Of a DNA stretch of 64,000 nucleotides, positions 2,059-42,543 are shown piece after piece. The stretch's first letter is position 1. Each line of letters starts with the position of its first letter. The position numbers were made by a program, and so were the translations under genes. The notes beneath the pieces are model-generated. The model was not told the DNA's origin and searched no databases. It worked only from the letters and a program-made list of their open reading frames with translations. The DNA is from an uncultured Gammaproteobacteria bacterium (lineage in GTDB: Bacteria > Patescibacteriota > Patescibacteriia > Magasanikbacterales > JBBTQS01): contig OZ246400.1 of assembly GCA_965230935.1 (NCBI GenBank), forward strand, positions 4,090-68,089. Reading direction: 5' to 3'.

Positions 2059-2604
2059 TTATAAATCATGTGCGTCAATACCATCACTTATCAAGCGTTG
2101 TATTTTGCGGACGTAGTCGATATGTTTAATATTTGATTGGACATCTTCTGTTCGAGGGTTCCAAACAGATTTCATTCCCACGATTTTTGAAACCGTGGTA
2201 GTGTCATTGATAAGCATTACCGTTTGTAAATCCACTGAGGTGCTATCATTTTCTATCGGCCGTCTTTCGTTGATTGATCGATTCAGTTTTTGAGTGAGAA
2301 TTGTTTGTTTGATTTGTTCAAGCTCGGCATCGTCGAGCGTAAACGATAAGGATTTCTCAGTATCAAAATCTTCATCCGGATGATAGCCACCATAATGCCA
2401 GGTGTATGTTCCTTGATTATCTGCGATGGTAAGAGTTTCAACTTCCCAGTGTGCGTCCATGCTGTGTTCTTGCTCTTCAAAAGCGATTGAAAGATAAAAA
2501 TCATGGCCAGTGGGTATTTCAACTGGAATTTTGGGCGTGCGAGTGAGAGCGATTGCCAGAAGGGCTAATGCAGTCGCCACGACAAGTAAAAGAGATTTTT
2601 TCAT
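2059..2604 (-). CDS. hypothetical secreted protein/lipoprotein (signal peptide)
   Basis: N-terminus MKKSLLLVVATALALLAIAL is a typical signal peptide. No family recognised. Confidence 0.6.
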   Translation of the reverse strand: MKKSLLLVVATALALLAIALTRTPKIPVEIPTGHDFYLSIAFEEQEHSMDAHWEVETLTIADNQGTYTWHYGGYHPDEDFDTEKSLSFTLDDAELEQIKQTILTQKLNRSINERRPIENDSTSVDLQTVMLINDTTTVSKIVGMKSVWNPRTEDVQSNIKHIDYVRKIQRLISDGIDAHDL

Positions 2605-2670
2605 AGCTTTGGGCTAATTGTAGCATATCTAGACAAACGTGAGAGAATCCTATATATTTGGTGCAGTCTT

Positions 2671-2752
2671 GGGTCGGTACCGAAGCGGTCAAACGGGGCT
2701 GACTGTAAATCAGCTGGCTACGCCTTCGGGGGTTCGAATCCCTCCCGGCCCA
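2671..2752 (+). tRNA. tRNA-Tyr (anticodon GTA)
   Basis: 7-bp acceptor stem GGGTCGG/CCGGCCC, anticodon loop CTGTAAA (GUA), long variable arm, T-loop GGTTCGAATCC, discriminator A. No CCA is encoded. Confidence 0.85.
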
Positions 2753-3127
2753 CAGTATGATTTTGTATGATCTTTCATCAGCAAAAATGGCTACTCATTA
2801 AGTGGCTATTTTTGTTTTCAAATAAAAAACAGCACCCCAGCGTTGCGCCAGAGTGCGTGAAGGAAAAGGGTTAGACGGGCTCGAACGCGACGCAAGCTCC
2901 TACACAAGTATCGCGAACGGCCCACCACGACGGAGGTTCCAATGGAATTACATCATGGTGAACTTCGCCCGCCTTACCCAGCTCCGCAGTGTTCACCGCG
3001 GAACTTGTATCTGAAGTGCCCAAGGGCAAGGGAGTAGTGATCCCCCGCCCCCAGGCCGGTTGTGGTGTTCACCGCGTGATGCGAGGACCCTGGCAGGTCA
3101 CTCAAATCACGCAAGAAGGAGTACGAA

Positions 3128-3400
3128 ATGCACTCGTCCCCCTGCCCGCGTTGCGGATTCTTCCACCCCCGAGACCCAAGGAGTTCACCAAGGGTCAATT
3201 GTTTTGATCAATTGCGCGGGCGGCGAAGGGGATCCGACCCCCCTTCAACCACCCACGACTTCGGCTGCAGACAGATCCTGAGACCACGCCGTCAGACCGG
3301 CATGACCTCGCAATCGAGACAAGGAAACACGCTAATGAGAACTTGCCCCTTCTGCTGTAACTGTCTTCGTCCGCGTGTAAACAAGTATACAAAATACTGA
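3128..3400 (+). CDS. small Cys-rich basic ORF inside the GC-rich island (possible zinc ribbon: CPRC...CPFCC)
   Basis: AAGGAG Shine-Dalgarno 7 nt upstream of ATG 3128, and the stop overlaps a perfect hairpin. The Arg-rich composition could instead be a wrong-frame artefact of GC-rich DNA. Confidence 0.25.
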   Translation: MHSSPCPRCGFFHPRDPRSSPRVNCFDQLRGRRRGSDPPSTTHDFGCRQILRPRRQTGMTSQSRQGNTLMRTCPFCCNCLRPRVNKYTKY

Positions 3401-3425
3401 ACACCTGTCAAGTACAGGTGTTCAG
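3397..3425 (+). terminator. perfect 11-bp-stem hairpin (CTGAACACCTG-tcaagta-CAGGTGTTCAG)
   Basis: Perfect inverted repeat read directly from the sequence. No strong U-tract follows, so it could equally be an operator or RNA hairpin. Confidence 0.4.
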
Positions 3426-3574
3426 TCAAGATCGACGATAGATATTCCAGAGAATCCGAATGTATTGGCTCACTTGACTCATCTCCCACTCATTCAGTTC
3501 GGAAAACGGGAAGTTCGGCCCACCAATGCAAAAAGGCGCCTAATTTAGCAGCCTTTTTCATTCTTCTAAAGCAT

Positions 3575-3607
3575 TGACATTGTTCACTTTTTGTGGTGAA
3601 ATAGAAT
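3575..3607 (+). promoter_or_regulatory. sigma70-like promoter (TTGACATTGT ... TGAAAT/TAGAAT) inside an AT-rich pocket of the GC island
   Basis: TTGACA at 3575-3580, TGAAAT at 17-nt spacing, followed by TAGAAT. It shares the 11-mer ATTGACATTGT and TAGAAT with the tRNA-Thr promoter at 5809-5837. Confidence 0.45.
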
Positions 3608-3685
3608 TTGCCCTCTTGATTCGAGTAGGGTCTGCCAAACAATCCATTTGTTTTGAAGACCTTCTTCGTATCGTCCGGAGAGGCG

Positions 3686-3828
3686 CGCTCGGCGTGAAAA
3701 TACAGACCACAACAACGGTGTTGTAACATGTCGCTCGGTGACATGGTTTGTCAGAATTTCCCCAGACGAATAGTGCTCGGCACTAGGGGTGCTACGTGCA
3801 TAGCAATGTGCTGTTTCACTCGGTGAGA
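3686..3828 (+). repeat. four direct repeats of (C)GCTCGG(C/T)(G/A) at ~42-46-nt periodicity in the leader upstream of the 3861 ORF
   Basis: GCTCGG at 3687, 3733 and 3775, and ACTCGG at 3818. Four copies of a 6-mer in ~140 nt at a regular period are unlikely by chance. Confidence 0.4.
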
Positions 3829-3860
3829 CAAGTGGTGATTCTTTAGAAGACGGAGGAACC

Positions 3861-4724
3861 GTGGACGATCAAGTCTATAAACGGTATCTCGAGCTCGCGA
3901 AACTTCTTAGGAGATGCGGGCTCTTCAGTGTTTACCTGGCTATCATGATGGCAGCCAGGTCGCGCAAGCAGTTCGACACCATGATGGCGGAGCTGCCTGA
4001 CCACGCACGACTGATGCGCGAGGATCAGGTGGTGCTCTGGAAGGCTCTCAGCGCTGTCTGGGGGAAGGGTATTCCGACGGCAGATCACCTGAACTTGGCG
4101 GGGCGTGAGCTCCTGTTCAAGCCGGTGTTCGACGATCCGAAGGCCACTCTCGTCTGGTACTACAAGTTCGTGTTGTGTAAGGACCGTGAGCCTGCGAGCC
4201 TTTCCGCCTATGGGATTGGCCGACAGGACGAGCGACGCCTCATTCATGGTATCGAGGAGCGTTCGGGACGTGGGGCGCAGCACTTCTCGGTTCAGTGTGC
4301 TGGTCAGCTCTTCAGCGTCGGCTGCAACCTATTCGATGATGTCATGCTGGTGGAGTTCGAGCTTTCTGTCAAGAACCTCACCGAGCAGATGACACAGGCC
4401 ATCCGCAGCTGTAAGTCGCTGATGCGTCTGAACACGCGTCGTGGCTCAAGCGTTGATGACAAGGTGACCTTCGTCGTCGAGCTCAGCAACGTGGATGACC
4501 TGGCCGCCGTGGTCACCCAAGTCGAAACGGGGTGTGGACCTCTCGACCTGCTCGATCCTGACGACTTCACATTCGAGCGCCTGCTCACGGCGCGTCTTCG
4601 TGATCTGGAGCTGCCGCTCGAGTCGTCGGTCGGTCGAGTCGTCGACCACAACCCTGCGCTGAAGCATCACTTCCCCAAACATCCTGAGGGGCAGTGGAGC
4701 ATCCAGTTCCCGGCCATGGACTAA
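3861..4724 (+). CDS. hypothetical protein (GC-rich island cargo)
   Basis: GTG start with GGAGGA Shine-Dalgarno at 3852-3857, a 287-codon open frame, and a terminator hairpin after the stop. No family recognised. Confidence 0.6.
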   Translation: MDDQVYKRYLELAKLLRRCGLFSVYLAIMMAARSRKQFDTMMAELPDHARLMREDQVVLWKALSAVWGKGIPTADHLNLAGRELLFKPVFDDPKATLVWYYKFVLCKDREPASLSAYGIGRQDERRLIHGIEERSGRGAQHFSVQCAGQLFSVGCNLFDDVMLVEFELSVKNLTEQMTQAIRSCKSLMRLNTRRGSSVDDKVTFVVELSNVDDLAAVVTQVETGCGPLDLLDPDDFTFERLLTARLRDLELPLESSVGRVVDHNPALKHHFPKHPEGQWSIQFPAMD

Positions 4725-4764
4725 CCTCCATCGTGGTCTAAACTCACAAAACAAACACAACCAG

Positions 4765-4800
4765 AACGCAACCCTACGGGTTGTCGTTTTGTTTAGTTTT
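4765..4800 (+). terminator. rho-independent terminator
   Basis: Stem (ACG)CAACCC / GGGTTG(CGT) followed by a T-rich tract tcgttttgtttagtttt. Confidence 0.5.
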
Positions 4801-4957
4801 GATTTGTTACTGATTCATCCGGCTTGTAAATCTTCCCAAAATCAAAACACACCATCGTTGGTGTGTCTTGTTGGTTTGCCTAAACTTCCGTCATCTCCTG
4901 CGACGGCAATGCCTAGGGCTTGCTCGGATGACCGAGTGCGCCGCCACGCGCTCCCGA

Positions 4958-5570
4958 TCAGTCCTTGATGCGGACCACGCCGTCCGTGCCGACCTCCAGG
5001 GTCTGCTCGACGATGGCCGCCGCCACCGAGGCGTTGAGGCTGGTCCACAGCGTGTTGGTCGCGACGGCCTTCGCCAGCTCCCGGTCGCGCGCGAGGTCCG
5101 TCAGCTCGCAGCGCGCCGAGGTGAAGCCGTCCTGAGCCGCCGCGAGCCGAGCCAGGTTGGCCGGATCGCAGAACGGGTCCGCCAGGTCGTCCACCAGGAC
5201 CACGATGGCGTCGTCCACGTGCTCCTCGATCTCGGTCGCGTTGCCCTTGGTGCACTTGCCGACCACCGGCGTGGCGTCCTCGACGTTGCTCGGACCACCG
5301 GCGGGGTTGCTGTGGTTGCCGCCGACCAGCTCGACCTCGGTGAACTCCACACACAGGATGAACGAGTTGGGGTGCTGCGCCGTGAGCTCGGAGATGAGCT
5401 CGTCGGTGCAGTCGCCCTCCTCCTCGTACGTCAGCGTGCTGCTCCCGTCCTTGGCTTGGACCTCGATCTCGGCGACGGTCGTGGTCTGCGCGAGGGCGGT
5501 GGCGGGGACGGCGAAGGTGGCGGCGATGGCGGCGATGCAAAGAACGAACTCGATACCATAGTGACGCATG
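4958..5570 (-). CDS. hypothetical secreted protein (GC-rich island cargo)
   Basis: Internal ATG at 5570 gives MRHYGIEFVLCIAAIAATFAVPATALAQ, a clear signal peptide, with GGAG just upstream. It lies in the longest frame, 4958-5710. Several acidic, Cys-containing segments follow. Confidence 0.55.
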
Positions 5571-5808
5571 GATCTTCTCCCTTTCGATGATGCGCGTTCG
5601 ATGTGGGGTGTGAAGGATTCCTTCCCTCCTACTGCATCTCGCTTCCCACTTGGCGAGATGAGGTCCCTAACTCCCTCCTCGGAAGATTGAAACAGTAGAC
5701 TATAGCACATTTGGACGGTTTTGTCAAGGGTGTCAAAGTAACAATTTAGCTAAAATAAGGTTAATTTGATAAAATAGGCCAATTTCCCCCCGGATAAATT
5801 AGGCTAAA

Positions 5809-5837
5809 TTGACATTGTGGTAATTTGAAGGTAGAAT
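5809..5837 (+). promoter_or_regulatory. sigma70 promoter for tRNA-Thr (TTGACA-17-TAGAAT) with upstream A/T-rich repeated motifs
   Basis: Consensus -35 TTGACA, a 17-nt spacer and TAGAAT. Repeated AAAATA(A)GG..AATTT motifs at 5745-5806 resemble a UP element. Two hairpins in the leader precede the tRNA. Confidence 0.6.
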
Positions 5838-5938
5838 ATAGGGGCAAAAGTTGTCTTGCCGCCAACCTTAGCAACTTCGTCGCTAAGGTTGCTCGTTCGG
5901 AAAAGCATGAACGCAAGCGTTCAGCTTTTCACTCACTC

Positions 5939-6012
5939 GCCACCTTAGCTCATCTGGCTAGAGCGACGGTTTTGTAAACCGTAGGTACCGGGTTCGAGTC
6001 CCGGAGGTGGCT
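5939..6012 (+). tRNA. tRNA-Thr (anticodon TGT)
   Basis: Acceptor GCCACCT/AGGTGGC, anticodon stem ACGGT/ACCGT with loop TTTGTAA (UGU), T-arm CCGGGTTCGAGTCCCGG. Confidence 0.9.
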
Positions 6013-6101
6013 CACTTTCGAGGATGTACAGGCCGTGTTTATGGTGGTACATCTCACGGAATCCATTGCGGTCTACACTGAGGTTGATAACGAATCAACC
6101 T

Positions 6102-7844
6102 ATGGAAATCGACAGACTCCTGATGGAGTTCGCCGGGGACCGCGTGGCCTTGCGCGGCTACTCGCCCCACACAATGCGGCGCCAAGTGCAGGCGGCGCGA
6201 CAGTTCTTCACGGTCACCGGCATCGGCGCCCTATCAGAGGTGAGCTACGACGTGGACGCCCGCCAGAGCCAACAGCTACGCGATGAAACTGACTTGACCG
6301 CTGAGCAGGTTCAGCCGAGCAGTTCGCCGAACTGGTGGCAGTTTCTCACGCTCCCGAAGGGGCGCGTACGTCAGTACTGGACGCGTGCAGCCCGCGAGGT
6401 GGTTAGGGAGGTTGAGGCTTCAGAGTCCCCACTGGTCTTCATCACCTTCCATGCGAAATATCAAAGCGATGTGTACCGATGGCGGTTCTCACCATGTAAT
6501 CCGGTGCTGCTGCAAACGATAGGCATCAGAGCCTTCTTTACCCTCATCGATGATGTCTACCAGATGCACAAGCGGCGTCCCGGAGACATTCAGAGCGAAC
6601 GTCAGATGTGCTTCAAGTACGAAGATCCGGCGGAGCGCGCGCTCGCCCTGGTGAGAGAGACTAAGGCTTCCCTCGTCGAGCTGATCAGGTGGCGGCAAGA
6701 GGAGATTGCGACGACGGAGATGCTTGCGGCTGTGTCCGGTTGTTCTGCGCAGCTCGTGTCGATCCGACATCCGCTGGCCACGATGCACAAGCTGTTGGAA
6801 TCACCCGAGTCGGCATTTTACTTCTCACATCCGATTACTGGAGTTCGCGCCGACCCGAACTTTCCGGACGTGGTTGGTCTGAAGGAGATCGAGGATATCT
6901 CAAGCGAGCTCCGCGGTCGCTTCACACTGATTGAACCAACTACTATTGACGAGTACAGGATTGAGCAGCTGGGGCAGGGCACCCCCGCACCGCGTCTGAT
7001 TCCTCGACTGTCATGCCGATGGCCGTTCCCGGCTGGTGAGGACGAGATGCTTGGCGGCTCCGACGGCTTTCCCACGTTCGGTAAGCAAGAACTGCTCTGT
7101 CCGCGCGAGAACGTCGTCGCGCTAGAGTTGGAGGAATTCTTCGCGGATTTGCTGGCCGGAACCGCCCCGGAGGAGCCCACACATCTGGTTTCGGAGTCGA
7201 TCGGTGGCTTGGTTGATCTGCTAAAAGAAGACATCACCTGGCGGGATCACACGCTTGTAGACCAATGCGGACGCCTCGTGGTGTTCCGCCCGGCGTACCG
7301 CGGGATTCCGTCGACCGGAGTTCGCAGAGAGATTGAGTACTATCGGAAGCTAGCTCTTAGCGGTCCACAAGACAAACACTTCTGCGTATTGCTTCACCCG
7401 CCGGACGACGATGACGCCTTGGCCCAGTACATAGCGTTGAAACTTGTTTCTTCGTGGGCCGAGGACTCGGGCGTGGGCCCGCACATTCGACCACGTCTTG
7501 ATGTCGGGGCCGAAAATCAACTCATTCGAGACCTGACGGTCGCGCTCGGCAGCGACGCCGATGAGGAGACCACGGCCCGAGCATGTGCGGATGCGCTTTC
7601 CCCACGGATTGAACCGGAAGTCAGCGGACCGTCCCCAATGACGAGTGGTCGTCGTGTCGGAGCGCGAACAAGGAACAAAGAGGTCTTGCAGGCGGCCGCA
7701 GCCCGCGCGCTGTCGACGATACAAGATCACCGCTACTTTCGCTCTGGCGGCCTGATGCCAGGACGCGCGGCCGCCACTGACGATGCACGGCCACCACAAC
7801 CCTGCTGTTTTCTGAGTAATACGCCGTTTGGTGCAGTCGTTTAA
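6102..7844 (+). CDS. large hypothetical protein; the N-terminus resembles the core-binding (SAM-like) domain of tyrosine recombinases
   Basis: LMEFAGDRVALRGYSPHTMRRQVQAARQFF follows the XerC/XerD N-domain pattern (..RGLS.NT..AYRRDL..F). No canonical R-K-H-R-H-Y catalytic domain was recognised. Only weak RH...Y resemblance at RHPLATMHKLLESPESAFYFSH. The frame is open from 6024. Confidence 0.5.
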   Translation: MEIDRLLMEFAGDRVALRGYSPHTMRRQVQAARQFFTVTGIGALSEVSYDVDARQSQQLRDETDLTAEQVQPSSSPNWWQFLTLPKGRVRQYWTRAAREVVREVEASESPLVFITFHAKYQSDVYRWRFSPCNPVLLQTIGIRAFFTLIDDVYQMHKRRPGDIQSERQMCFKYEDPAERALALVRETKASLVELIRWRQEEIATTEMLAAVSGCSAQLVSIRHPLATMHKLLESPESAFYFSHPITGVRADPNFPDVVGLKEIEDISSELRGRFTLIEPTTIDEYRIEQLGQGTPAPRLIPRLSCRWPFPAGEDEMLGGSDGFPTFGKQELLCPRENVVALELEEFFADLLAGTAPEEPTHLVSESIGGLVDLLKEDITWRDHTLVDQCGRLVVFRPAYRGIPSTGVRREIEYYRKLALSGPQDKHFCVLLHPPDDDDALAQYIALKLVSSWAEDSGVGPHIRPRLDVGAENQLIRDLTVALGSDADEETTARACADALSPRIEPEVSGPSPMTSGRRVGARTRNKEVLQAAAARALSTIQDHRYFRSGGLMPGRAAATDDARPPQPCCFLSNTPFGAVV

Positions 7845-8046
7845 TTGCGCTTCGCAACGGTAGTCGGCCGACTCCTCACTGAGAAGAGGCGTTCGCATTT
7901 GCGAACACTGGACCGAACTGGCACCTGCAGCCGCCCGGGCTAGACAGATCCGCATGAGAAATGTTACTGTTGATCCGTCCCGCATGGCCCCGACCGGTTG
8001 AGAGTTGTTGCGGCGCTAAATTTAGCTAATCCAATAGAACAACCCC

Positions 8047-8090
8047 TTTGTAAACCGTAGGTACTGGGTTCGAGTCCCAGAGGTGGCTCA
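8047..8090 (+). repeat. attR-like direct repeat: displaced copy of the tRNA-Thr 3' half
   Basis: 42 of 44 bp are identical to 5969-6012, and the two mismatches are compensatory within the T-stem. Confidence 0.75.
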
Positions 8091-8139
8091 AGGAAGGATA
8101 AAAAAGCCATGGGGACGTAGTGAGCGAAAGCGAACGTCT

Positions 8140-8377: not shown

Positions 8378-8827
8378 ATGGCATTTCGCATATGTACAAC
8401 GTGTTTCGTCAAAAAGCCTGTAGAACATTTTAGTGTACGAGATATTCGGATCGGTCGGCGACATCGAGTATGTAAGATGTGTCACAAAACGTATCGTCGT
8501 AAGCATTACCTGCGTAATAAAGAGAAGTACATTAAAAAGGCGCGCAGGTGGAATGGGAAACAACGTAAGAGTATAGAAGATTTTTTATTCCGATATTTAT
8601 CAAAACACCCTTGTATTGATTGTGGGGAGGGTGACGTGGTGGTACTTGATTTTGATCATCGCTATGATAAGCGCATGGCGATCACGCAGATGATGAAGAA
8701 TTGCTACGCACTTGAAACGATCAAGAAAGAGATAAAGAAATGTGAAGTTCGTTGTGCTAATTGCCATAGAAGGCGAACTGCTATAGAATGTGGGTACTGG
8801 AAAATTAAACGTCAATTGGGCCCATAG
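8378..8827 (+). CDS. HNH endonuclease (free-standing, homing-endonuclease-like)
   Basis: N-terminal Cys-rich zinc-binding region (CTTCF...CKMCH), then an HNH core CIDCGE...LDFDHRYDK...CANCHRRRT. Confidence 0.8.
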   Translation: MAFRICTTCFVKKPVEHFSVRDIRIGRRHRVCKMCHKTYRRKHYLRNKEKYIKKARRWNGKQRKSIEDFLFRYLSKHPCIDCGEGDVVVLDFDHRYDKRMAITQMMKNCYALETIKKEIKKCEVRCANCHRRRTAIECGYWKIKRQLGP

Positions 8828-8897
8828 TTTCAATTGGCAAAACGCAAGTCTCCAAAACTTGAGTTCTTCGTTCAAATCGAAGTGGGCCTGCCAATCT

Positions 8898-36084: not shown

Positions 36085-36093
36085 TTGCAATCT

Positions 36094-36669
36094 ATGTCAG
36101 CTGAATCCGTTGATAAACTCATGTATTCATTTGTGATCGAGGACGTCCTCAAAGGCGTCTTTATTCACGTACCACCGGGATATGTCGCGTGTGTATATGA
36201 TTTAGGTCGGGGAGTGCTTAAAAAAGTGTTGACTCCTGGACTGCATTTGAAAATTCCGTTTTGGCAAAAGGCCAAGTTGTTTAACACGCAAACACTTGAA
36301 TATAGTATTTCGCGCGAGTTTAACCCAAAGAATGAAAATGCGATGGGGGATATTCCGATTCAAGTGGAGACCAAAGATGATAAAAAGTTGGTGATCGAGG
36401 GGACGGTATTGTTACGATTGGACATTCATCAGATCCCAGCAATTTGGCAAACGATTGGTGAGGATTTTATTCATAAAATTATTCGGCCGACCATTCAATC
36501 ACGTATGCGTTTGATTATGTCGCATTGGAAAGGGCAAGAGGTAATTTCGACTAAGCGGGACGAGGTGGAAGAAGATATCCGTTCGCAGCTTGAAAAATTG
36601 TTTAAACGTCGTGGAATTTTTGTTGAGGATGTGTTGCTCTCAGAGGTAAGTCCGGTGGGGAGGGGATAG
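36094..36669 (+). CDS. SPFH/band-7 (prohibitin/HflC-like) domain protein
   Basis: VPPGYVACVYDLGRGVLKKVLTPGLHLKIPFWQKAKLFNTQTLEY is an SPFH N-terminal signature. Relatively short at 191 aa. Confidence 0.75.
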   Translation: MSAESVDKLMYSFVIEDVLKGVFIHVPPGYVACVYDLGRGVLKKVLTPGLHLKIPFWQKAKLFNTQTLEYSISREFNPKNENAMGDIPIQVETKDDKKLVIEGTVLLRLDIHQIPAIWQTIGEDFIHKIIRPTIQSRMRLIMSHWKGQEVISTKRDEVEEDIRSQLEKLFKRRGIFVEDVLLSEVSPVGRG

Positions 36670-36691
36670 TCAATTTTAAAGCGAAGAAATA

Positions 36692-36717
36692 ATACACCGT
36701 TAATGGCGGTGTATTTT
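36692..36717 (+). terminator. rho-independent terminator
   Basis: ATACACCG / CGGTGTAT stem followed by TTT. Confidence 0.65.
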
Positions 36718-36805
36718 GGTATTCTTCTTCTTGACCGGGAGTTAGATGCCTGCTATTTTATGGTCAACGTGTCATCACTGGGGTGACACAAGGAGGATTG
36801 AGCAC

Positions 36806-37177
36806 GTGGACGGCACATGTAAGCTTCTACTCGTCGTGAGCAGAGGAAGGAAAGATGGCCCTGCAGCCACTAAAGGAGCACAGGTCAGTGATGATCTGGA
36901 GGGCAAGATCATTGTGCGCATGGTGAGGTGGCCAACCATACCTACGCGTGGTGATCTGTGCGTGTTTGGTCGTACTGAGGATGGAAAGGTGATTTCGAAG
37001 TACCTGGAACGCTCAGCACGATCCATTCAGCACGACTTTGATCACGACGTGGTTCGGGTTTGCTATCGCGGTCTTGAGCCCGCACTGTTCGACGTACTAG
37101 CGAACCAAGACGGTTGGCAGACGTTGGAGAAGTGGGAGGCTGGGCTTGCTTCGTCTCAAGACACCGCAGAGGGCTGA
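36806..37177 (+). CDS. hypothetical protein (GC-rich micro-insert cargo)
   Basis: AAGGAGG Shine-Dalgarno at 36791-36797, then GTG 36806. 123 codons. A short hairpin GTGTCA..TGACAC lies just upstream. No family recognised. A longer ATG-initiated frame runs from 36746. Confidence 0.45.
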   Translation: MDGTCKLLLVVSRGRKDGPAATKGAQVSDDLEGKIIVRMVRWPTIPTRGDLCVFGRTEDGKVISKYLERSARSIQHDFDHDVVRVCYRGLEPALFDVLANQDGWQTLEKWEAGLASSQDTAEG

Positions 37178-37252
37178 GTAGCCCGACACGCACGCAACAC
37201 AACTTCATACAACAGACAGCCGTTGACGCCATGTTCAGCGGTTTGTGTATTC

Positions 37253-37280
37253 TTGACAGGTTTTATAGGTGTGCTATGCT
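37253..37280 (+). promoter_or_regulatory. sigma70-like promoter of the hrcA operon (TTGACA-16-TATGCT)
   Basis: Consensus -35, a 16-nt spacer, and a -10 that abuts the CIRCE operator. Confidence 0.55.
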
Positions 37281-37283
37281 TGC

Positions 37284-37310
37284 TTAGCACTCTCTTGACC
37301 TGAGTGCTAA
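37284..37310 (+). promoter_or_regulatory. CIRCE operator (HrcA binding site)
   Basis: TTAGCACTC-N9-GAGTGCTAA is a perfect match to the CIRCE consensus. It sits immediately upstream of hrcA-grpE-hsp20-dnaK. Confidence 0.9.
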
Positions 37311-37327
37311 TCAATAGTAAACTTGCT

Positions 37328-38020
37328 ATGCAAGATCGACAATTACAACTTTTGAAGGGTCTTGTTGATATGTATGTGCAGACCGCAGAGCCGGTTGGTT
37401 CTCAAGCATTGCTTGATTATTGCAATCTCAATGTAAGCTCAGCTACGGTTCGAAATGATCTGAAAGTGCTGGAGCAGGAAGGTTATGTCAGCTCTCCACA
37501 CACCAGTGCTGGGCGAGTGCCAACAGCAAAAGCCTATCGCTATTATGTTGAGCATTGTATTGCTCCAGTAGTCTCACAAGAGGTCTTGGGTGTTGCCCAA
37601 GAGCACGCAACGGTTGCTGATCCAGTAGTACGCACCAAGGCATTTGCCAAAGCACTTGCGGTACAGATTAACCAAGCGGTGTTTGTGGTCATCTCCCCAG
37701 AGCAACTGTACTACACCGGGTTGTCCCACTTATTCTCGCAGCCAGAGTTTGCAGATCAGGGAAGTGTACAAAATGTGACGCGCTTGCTTGATCGGTTTGA
37801 TGAGGTGGTGCATGATCTGTTTGGTTTGGTGGAAGACAAAGACATGCATGTGCACATTGGTCCTGGAAATCCATTTGGTGATGTGTGTTCTATTATGCAT
37901 ATTCCCTGCGAGATTACTGCAGGGCAGAAAAGTTTGTTTGGTATTTTAGGACCAACACGAATGGACTACAACACGACCATTGGGGTAATGAAATGTGTAA
38001 AAGAATTTTTAGCAAAGTAG
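37328..38020 (+). CDS. hrcA: heat-inducible transcription repressor HrcA (short form)
   Basis: N-terminal winged-helix ERQLQLLKGLVDMYVQTAEPVGSQAL. The first gene after CIRCE. 230 aa. Confidence 0.8.
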   Translation: MQDRQLQLLKGLVDMYVQTAEPVGSQALLDYCNLNVSSATVRNDLKVLEQEGYVSSPHTSAGRVPTAKAYRYYVEHCIAPVVSQEVLGVAQEHATVADPVVRTKAFAKALAVQINQAVFVVISPEQLYYTGLSHLFSQPEFADQGSVQNVTRLLDRFDEVVHDLFGLVEDKDMHVHIGPGNPFGDVCSIMHIPCEITAGQKSLFGILGPTRMDYNTTIGVMKCVKEFLAK

Positions 38021-42145: not shown

Positions 42146-42226
42146 GCATTGACAAAAGTGGGGTATCGTGAGACGATAGACTATCGTCTGAGTCCTCAGG
42201 CGGTGTAACCACAAGAAGGAGTACCA

Positions 42227-42466
42227 ATGACGGAGCACTCAGCGCTACTTGTTGCAGATGTTCCGCCAGGGGGAATATTTCTGTATCAATATCCGCAAGG
42301 CGGGGAAGACATCCTGGTGCTCGGGTCTCCTAAGCCCGACACCATGTACGTGTACGTTCACGTGTTTGGTGACACAAACGGCGAGCGTTTTCTCCTCGCG
42401 CTTACGCGATCAATCGTTCGAGTCTTTGGCTCACGTGACGAGGCGCGTAAGCACGCGGATCAATAA
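42227..42466 (+). CDS. hypothetical small protein (GC-rich micro-insert cargo)
   Basis: AAGGAG Shine-Dalgarno 7 nt upstream of the ATG. 79 codons in a GC-rich segment, followed by a hairpin and T-tract at ~42483-42510. Confidence 0.4.
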   Translation: MTEHSALLVADVPPGGIFLYQYPQGGEDILVLGSPKPDTMYVYVHVFGDTNGERFLLALTRSIVRVFGSRDEARKHADQ

Positions 42467-42543
42467 CCATACTCCACAACCACGACGCGCAGCACCTGCT
42501 GTGCGTTTGTGATTTATGGTATTTTGGGATACAGTATCTTCAT

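Follow-up and report, generated by a model that had tools for sequence, protein, structure and literature searches.

Introduction

Genomic islands and horizontal gene transfer account for up to 13% of genome length in Patescibacteria (PMC12455944). We analyzed a 64,000-nt stretch of contig OZ246400.1 (the window; all coordinates are window positions) that contains an insert of approximately 520 bp, rich in guanine plus cytosine (GC), with an open reading frame (ORF) that runs from GTG 36806 to 37177 and is here called ORFx. The insert lies between the terminator of an SPFH gene and the promoter P1 and controlling inverted repeat of chaperone expression (CIRCE) of hrcA, and neither transcription unit is disrupted. 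It is probably a lineage-specific, horizontally acquired, self-contained single-gene cassette in a hypervariable spacer. It represents an ordinary case of horizontal gene acquisition, and is notable mainly for a classic ribosome-binding site (RBS), which the host genes lack.

Among described systems, the insert was compared first with genomic islets, comprising the ORFan 'novel gene pool' and the islands of Patescibacteria (PMC12455944). Like these, it has an atypical GC content, both overall and at third codon positions (GC3), is absent from relatives that keep the synteny, occupies a variable intergenic site, encodes a protein without homologues, and shares the window with larger GC-rich islands that adjoin tRNA genes. 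Unlike them, it is very small (~0.5 kb, one gene) and has no integrase or transposase and no tRNA at the site. Moreover, in contrast to an islet with a traced donor, it has no homologue elsewhere in all sets searched.

Phage morons are independent promoter-ORF-terminator units of deviant GC content that lie between conserved genes. The insert is similar in having a single ORF, its own predicted promoter and terminator, and a deviant GC content, and in sitting precisely between two transcription units without disrupting them; a second orphan in the window, ORFy, has the same layout. Unlike morons, the insert is found among chromosomal housekeeping genes (SPFH and the hrcA operon) rather than in a prophage, and has no matches in PHROGs, phage records or IMG/VR. 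It also resembles miniature inverted-repeat transposable elements (MITEs), small insertion sequence (IS) insertions and integron cassettes in being small and intergenic with a short direct repeat at both junctions. It differs from MITEs in having no terminal inverted repeats and a single copy in the window, and from integron cassettes in having its own promoter-like site and no evident attC-like element or integrase. A MITE or IS-derived element was rejected: inverted repeats were not found at the ends, nor was there any additional copy. Finally, the immediate neighbors of the insert include a perfect CIRCE and the hrcA-grpE-hsp20-dnaK-dnaJ cluster. Unlike members of the CIRCE/HrcA regulon, ORFx has no CIRCE in its own promoter or leader.

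Composition and anatomy of the insert

The GC content of segment 36740-37250 is 53.6%, and that of ORFx is 55.1%. In 510-bp windows outside positions 2500-8100, the background mean was 44.7% with a standard deviation (sd) of 2.5%. The maximum of this distribution, 54.3%, was the insert itself: apart from the large islands at 2.8-8 kb, no 510-bp stretch is richer in GC. Similarly, none of 1132 gene-internal 372-nt host windows matched ORFx in GC content (host maximum 52.7%) or in GC3, which is 0.556 in ORFx (host maximum 0.540; host mean 0.40). A preliminary description of the window had placed a GC-rich insert between the SPFH terminator and the hrcA promoter and raised the question of whether its composition falls within normal genome variance. 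All of the features that it listed were present, with coordinates correct to within 1-2 bases, and the composition is outside the host range in both GC and GC3.

The insert contains the following features:

36731..36759, + strand: promoter-like site for ORFx, TTGACC-17 nt-TATTTT with an extended TG; predicted, 9/12 in a consensus scan
36769..36789, + strand: leader hairpin, GTGTCAUC / GGUGACAC; 8-bp stem that ends 1 nt before the Shine-Dalgarno (SD) sequence, which is unpaired
36790..36796, + strand: SD sequence AAGGAGG, 9 nt 5' of GTG 36806
36806 (GTG)..37177 (TGA), + strand: ORFx; 123 codons, or 143 codons if read from ATG 36746
37218..37243, + strand: terminator-like hairpin after ORFx, weak; 9 pairs including G-T, 8-nt loop, tail TGTGTATTCT

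The single ORF led by AAGGAGG, with 123 codons from GTG or 143 from the upstream ATG, was confirmed as previously described. The GTGTCA...TGACAC hairpin noted before it is also present, but it is no more stable than shuffled sequences (z = -0.6). The hairpin after ORFx has a predicted folding energy of -13.7 kcal/mol (z = -1.8). Inferred from their sequences, this hairpin and the promoter-like site may function as terminator and promoter of ORFx.

The 20-codon extension from ATG 36746 was rejected as the start of the gene: it scored -0.52 (non-coding) in a codon model trained on host genes, and it has no SD. For both reasons, GTG 36806 is the likely start. From this codon, the predicted product is 13.6 kDa with a pI of 5.7, and by inspection it has neither a signal peptide nor a membrane segment. 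In the same model, the frame of ORFx scored +0.06, and the two alternative frames scored -0.55 and -0.61. The ORFx score is below those of all host genes (0.14-0.56), as expected from foreign codon usage. Three-base periodicity was detected at p about 0.03-0.04. Two antisense ORFs, 36942-37232 and 36775-37026, were rejected based on poorer frame statistics and no Pfam match. Overall, the intrinsic coding evidence (frame, periodicity and a well-placed SD) is moderate, not decisive, and ORFx is probably translated. An accessory rather than a housekeeping role is presumed.

Ribosome-binding sites of host genes and probable imports

Host genes are nearly devoid of SD sequences, including those with secure starts: dnaK (38963), grpE (38022), hsp20 (38508) and hrcA (37328). 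Host leaders are A/T-rich, and their mean duplex energy with the anti-SD was -1.29 kcal/mol (n = 55), weaker than that of random genomic 20-mers, -2.61 kcal/mol. The corresponding energies were -11.4 kcal/mol for ORFx, -8.3 kcal/mol for ORFy (42227), and -9.5 and -8.4 kcal/mol for the island ORFs at 3861 and 5569 (minus strand), respectively. AAGGAGG occurs once in the 64 kb, counting both strands, versus 4.85 ± 2.29 expected occurrences, and this sole copy is the RBS of ORFx. A strong SD at the first start of an ORF was found only in the four GC-rich segments of the window; elsewhere, such sequences were chance sites inside host genes.

Since the host genes are SD-less and SD-led first starts are confined to the GC-rich segments, the SD looks like a donor trait. 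As such, it supports a horizontal origin of ORFx and makes a native, fast-evolving gene unlikely. The scarcity of SD sequences in host leaders fits published reports on some Parcubacteria, in a subgroup of which the anti-SD motif is reported missing from the 16S rRNA (PMC9297842). In this SD-poor host, a consensus SD sets foreign genes apart no less clearly than GC content, of which it is independent as a marker. It could help to tell native from acquired genes in Parcubacteria-like genomes, and this is the most reusable point of the analysis. A further question is whether SD-led imports are translated at all in lineages reported to be without an anti-SD.

ORFx is a strict orphan

A word-indexed search of 5.8 billion protein clusters and an exhaustive phmmer search of 1.84 billion cluster representatives each returned only self matches for ORFx. 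These were encoded on contigs of PRJEB17505 whose DNA is 100% identical to the window. Searches against profile collections were likewise negative: no match in Pfam at E <= 1 or E <= 10, a best E of 0.15 in PHROGs, a best E of 0.08 in NCBIfam, and no match in PADLOC. There was also no match among PDB sequences at E <= 10. Comparison of ORFx with the ORFs of the other islands, and with the cargo proteins that relatives have at this site, showed no similarity either. ORFx is therefore a strict orphan, in agreement with its earlier listing as unrecognized. A phage or plasmid connection, which had been proposed for checking, was not found: tblastn and blastn searches of phage and plasmid records gave no match, nor did scans of IMG/VR and of metagenome contigs of the Joint Genome Institute (JGI).

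At the RNA level, a search of region 36600-37400 against Rfam 15 returned nothing at the gathering score, the remaining matches being at chance level (E 1.7-3.2). A known RNA family was rejected on this basis. The only Rfam matches in the whole window were three tRNAs.

Relatives and variability of the site

DnaK of the window is 69-76% identical to that of metagenome-assembled genomes labelled Magasanikbacteria, Moranbacteria, Parcubacteria or Patescibacteria. Based on these identities, the earlier suggestion that the organism is a Patescibacterium was correct; the lineage is Parcubacteria-like and not Saccharibacteria. The gene order YidC-SPFH-[gap]-HrcA-GrpE-(Hsp20)-DnaK-DnaJ was kept in 18 GTDB loci. 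In 11 of these, the gap between SPFH and hrcA was 114-307 bp. In the remaining seven, it was 481-1967 bp, and six of the seven gaps held unrelated ORFs of at least 60 codons, mostly of host-like GC content.

The closest relatives were found via DnaK and protein clusters and comprised eight loci with an HrcA identity of 58-65%; an HrcA pattern search of GTDB genomes and JGI contigs gave no match. The content 5' of hrcA varied among these relatives: some have three genes without annotation, others a guanylate cyclase together with an acyltransferase/HAD gene and a gene for 201 aa, and others no cargo, with BacA directly 5' of CIRCE. Cargo at the same site also included a 338-341-aa ORF that by eye is PP2C phosphatase-like, an ORF that by eye is Maf-like, and orphans. 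Such varied cargo (cyclase, PP2C-like, Maf-like, orphans) offers no guilt-by-location hint as to the function of ORFx.

ORFx was absent from all of the 18 GTDB loci and the eight loci with the closest HrcA, and among the 97 loci searched it was carried by same-strain assemblies only. Checking for presence or absence in related genomes, as had been proposed, thus showed the insert to be absent from every one examined. From the SPFH stop to the start of hrcA, the spacer measures 658 bp; without the insert and one repeat copy (~522 bp together), it would be ~130 bp, which is the size of the insert-free spacer of relatives. Based on the differing or absent cargo in relatives, the spot just 5' of the hrcA promoter and CIRCE is hypervariable, and ORFx is the private filling of this spot in its lineage.

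Orphan ORFs that are GC-richer than their genome were also observed at the borders of the hrcA-dnaJ cluster in relatives: 2764-3219 in locus L077 (49% vs 41%), 4229-4834 in L086 (53% vs 48%) and 9732-10337 in L089 (59% vs 52%). These suggest that the cluster edges may be recurrent landing sites for foreign genes in the clade.

Junctions and flanking signals

The genes around the insert encode NDH2, BacA, YidC, SPFH, HrcA, GrpE, Hsp20, DnaK and DnaJ. The features that flank it are as follows:

36085..36669, + strand: SPFH/Band_7 gene, the upstream host neighbor (Pfam Band_7, E = 2e-25)
36691..36715, + strand: intrinsic terminator of the SPFH gene, an 11-bp stem followed by a T-tail
36719..36735, + strand: left copy of the junction repeat, GTATT(CTT)3GAC, overlapping the -35 of the ORFx promoter-like site
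37247..37257, + strand: right copy of the junction repeat, GTATTCTTGAC, with n = 1 CTT, overlapping the -35 of hrcA P1
37253..37280, + strand: hrcA promoter P1, TTGACA-16 nt-TATGCT with TG, in host sequence (10/12 in a consensus scan)
37284..37310, + strand: CIRCE operator, TTAGCACTC-N9-GAGTGCTAA, with 0 mismatches and unique in the window
37295 (-35 TTGACC, inside the 9-nt spacer of CIRCE)..37323 (end of -10 TAAACT), + strand: predicted promoter P2, from a consensus scan
37328..38020, + strand: hrcA, the downstream host neighbor (Pfam HrcA and HrcA_DNA-bdg)

The SPFH gene is intact: its product aligns along the full length with the ~190-aa SPFH proteins of syntenic relatives, at 68-74% identity. 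Truncation by the insertion was rejected, as relatives carry the same ~190-aa protein. The terminator of this gene has a folding energy of -12.6 kcal/mol (z = -3.5), and 0 of 200 shuffles were as stable. On the other side, hrcA is the first gene of the hrcA-grpE-hsp20-dnaK-dnaJ cluster, and its called product of 230 aa begins at ATG 37328.

The sequence TTCTTGAC occurs four times in the window, with two of the occurrences at the two junctions of the insert. The 11-bp junction repeat, GTATT(CTT)nGAC, is a plausible target-site or microhomology duplication. A strong claim of target-site duplication was dropped because the significance of the alignment was just ~0.02.

The signals of hrcA itself are shared with relatives. 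An equivalent of P1, TTGAC(A/T)-~17 nt-TAnnnT, was also found just 5' of CIRCE in loci L086 and L087. In L083 and L086-L090, just upstream of position 5001, the same CIRCE was kept, with TTGACA contained in the loop and a -10 further on. Indeed, a -35 hexamer (TTGACC or TTGACA) within the spacer of the hrcA CIRCE, with a -10 ~17 nt further on, was kept in all of the closest relatives. Based on this conserved arrangement, binding of HrcA would directly cover the -35.

No further CIRCE copies were found in the whole window at up to three mismatches, and none precedes ORFx. The sole copy, 37284-37310, is downstream of the ORFx stop and of its terminator-like hairpin, and heat-shock control of ORFx is for this reason not suggested by the layout. 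ORFx adjoins the CIRCE/HrcA regulon and is not a demonstrable member of it.

Proposed origin and alternative explanations

In the proposed model, a foreign islet of ~520 bp entered the short spacer that separates the SPFH terminator from hrcA P1/CIRCE. The cassette would comprise a sigma-70-like promoter, a leader hairpin, a consensus SD, the 123-codon ORF and a weak terminator, and ORFx would encode a small, acidic, soluble protein. Horizontal acquisition is suggested by two donor traits, GC3 and the SD-type RBS, in a host that has 40% GC3 and is essentially SD-less. The donor would be an SD-using organism or mobile element with a GC content of ~55% or higher. As judged from the flanking repeat, integration probably occurred by illegitimate or microhomology recombination at GTATTCTTGAC. 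Such an event would leave a short flanking direct repeat and provide the cassette with a duplicate of the -35 box of the host. Taken alone, the insert is one more orphan gene acquired by a bacterium of the candidate phyla radiation (CPR), directly upstream of a heat-shock operon. More generally, it confirms that foreign DNA is acquired and retained at permissive intergenic sites even in the sub-megabase, streamlined genomes of Patescibacteria.

Several results weigh against this model. First, an ORF of at least 123 codons occurred in 6% of dinucleotide shuffles of the region, which makes the length of ORFx marginal by itself. Second, the single-sequence AlphaFold2 model of ORFx was unconfident, with a predicted local distance difference test (pLDDT) score of 45.7. 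Third, as ORFx has no homologue, it has no support from conservation, dN/dS or covariation. Fourth, should the host be without an anti-SD, the SD could be a relic that has no function, and translation of ORFx could be poor. With respect to integration, the junction repeat is statistically weak (local-alignment p ~0.02), and the left junction ranked ~17th-18th among ~1900 genome windows in the repeat-alignment test. There were no terminal inverted repeats, no second copy in the window or the other islands, and no mobility genes; no mobility gene or tRNA was found at the insert site itself. Finally, the plus strand of the insert folds well (z -2.7 to -3.05), which leaves some room for a role at the RNA level.

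The insert might instead be the decaying remnant of a larger foreign insert, left over after deletion; ORFx would then be a chance reading frame or a dying pseudogene that has lost its function. Relatives have 0.5-4 kb of varied cargo at the site, and the marginal ORF length, the frame score below that of every host gene, the low-confidence structural model and the lack of any homologue, parent family included, are all compatible with decay. Nevertheless, we consider this explanation unlikely. The cassette is compact and complete, with a promoter-like site, an SD at the ideal 9 nt, an ORF, a hairpin and little spare sequence. Moreover, its frame signal is clear with respect to the two other frames and the antisense ORFs, and a fragment of a real gene would normally match its family in a local HMMER search of the 1.84 billion representatives.

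Orphan genes are abundant in CPR genomes, and ORFx could in principle be native: a fast-evolving, lineage-specific gene that is GC-rich due to amino-acid composition or local mutation bias. Indeed, the GC contents of its first, second and third codon positions are 0.645, 0.452 and 0.556 (GC1 > GC3 > GC2), so that GC1 and GC2 are also raised over the host values of 0.547 and 0.393, which places part of the GC excess at the amino-acid level. However, GC3 is largely free of amino-acid constraint, and its value in ORFx exceeds both the host mean and the maximum of the 372-nt host windows. The consensus SD in a genome whose genes are without one, and the absence of ORFx from all relatives with flanking synteny, are similarly difficult to reconcile with a native gene, which we regard as very improbable.

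In AT-richer genomes, a GC-rich island is often the sign of a structured RNA. A structured non-coding or cis-acting plus-strand RNA as the functional product, with ORFx being incidental, would be consistent with the fold of plus-strand 36760-37250: it had a z of -3.05, with 1 of 100 shuffles as stable (z = -2.7 upon re-running), and was more stable than all 18 host sense windows (mean -0.60, sd 0.90, minimum -2.5). The minus strand had a z of just -1.6, consistent with helices that contain G-U pairs. These values are tempered by the one host window at z = -2.5, by an excess of ~2.3-2.7 sd that was found post hoc, and by the Rfam search, which gave nothing credible at E <= 5 and no family at the gathering score. 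Given that three-base periodicity and the perfectly placed SD and start codon favor coding, an RNA product is slightly more improbable still. As a side observation in this single sequence, the plus-strand fold includes a 12-bp G-U-rich helix in which 36907-36918 pairs with 36945-36956.

A metagenomic assembly chimera, in which foreign reads were joined into a CPR contig, might show such a sharp change of composition and lack of relatives, but is barely conceivable because separate assemblies of ERR2281800, ERR2281801 and ERR2281804 (PRJEB17505; Megahit-style ENA and Logan assemblies) cross both junctions at 100% identity, one of these contigs is 107.7 kb, the identical hrcA protein is found on a 931-kb contig as well, and the junctions lie exactly between a terminator and a promoter. 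A contig of ERR2281805 crosses the left junction, as judged from its called genes only. Exact look-ups of HrcA and SPFH did not reveal an insert-free variant in the same population: all contigs reaching the site carry the insert.

Other GC-rich segments in the window

The preliminary description had reported inserts of the same style at three other positions. These segments are indeed all GC-rich, with 57.4% for 2830-5710, 58.8% for 6013-8046 and 53.7% for 42150-42510, and SD-led first starts are restricted to them and the insert. Of the further claim of repeated acquisition from a high-GC donor, repeated acquisition was supported and a single donor was not. Specifically, a common donor for the four segments is unlikely because GC3 was 0.55-0.56 in the two micro-inserts and 0.67-0.94 in the ORFs of the large islands, and because no DNA similarity was found among the segments beyond a 13-16 nt RBS match between ORF 3128 and ORFy. 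The suggested actinobacterial source was not supported: ORFx has no homologue anywhere, and its GC3 of 0.56 is far below actinobacterial values.

The second micro-insert, 42146-42543, lies between dnaJ and a NUDIX gene and was absent from all relatives examined. It contains:

42227-42466: ORFy, a 79-codon orphan with a GC3 of 0.55, an in-frame score of +0.25 and the SD AGAAGGAG

ORFy is preceded by a perfect 8-bp leader hairpin and followed by a strong terminator at 42484-42507 (z = -4.3). The sequence CAAGAAGGAGTAC is common to its RBS region and to the RBS of ORF 3128-3400 in a large island. ORFx and ORFy might conceivably belong to an undescribed class of tiny, mobile, SD-led single-gene cassettes in SD-independent Parcubacteria-like genomes, although we consider this very doubtful. 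Were it true, such cassettes would land at terminator-promoter junctions, perhaps through integration at microhomologies in which the host -35 box is copied, and might be delivered by CPR phages or as host-derived DNA. Their consensus SD, in a host that may be without an anti-SD, would then imply an unusual mode of translation or a very recent arrival. In a variant of this scenario, the well-folding plus-strand transcript may be the functional product.

The large islands, 2754-5938 and 6014-8100, have 57-59% GC with a peak of 69%. They are located directly 3' of tRNA-Tyr (2671-2753) and tRNA-Thr (5939-6013), respectively, and no integrase was detected. The position directly downstream of a tRNA is classic for an integrative element. 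Within the first island, ORF 4958-5569 (minus strand) has a GC3 of 0.94 and a signal-peptide-like N-terminus, and ORF 3861-4724 has a weak PADLOC match (E = 0.005) to a type IV methyl-directed restriction enzyme.

Homologues were found for a single island protein, the 606-aa product of 6024-7844. Its 12 homologues share 35-48% identity with it and are all unannotated. Their genes are immediately 3' of a gene with a GGDEF or dCMP-deaminase domain (loci L094-L097), and L094 also contains an AAA_21/DUF3226 gene pair and a gene for a 1749-aa ATPase. This context looks like that of a defense island. The contigs that carry the homologues have 55-57% GC and are not assigned to a taxon. Finally, an HNH endonuclease gene of host-like GC content (8378-8827; PHROG 2255, E = 8.5e-29) separates the second island from tRNA-Trp (8818-8893), into which its 3' end extends by ~10 nt.

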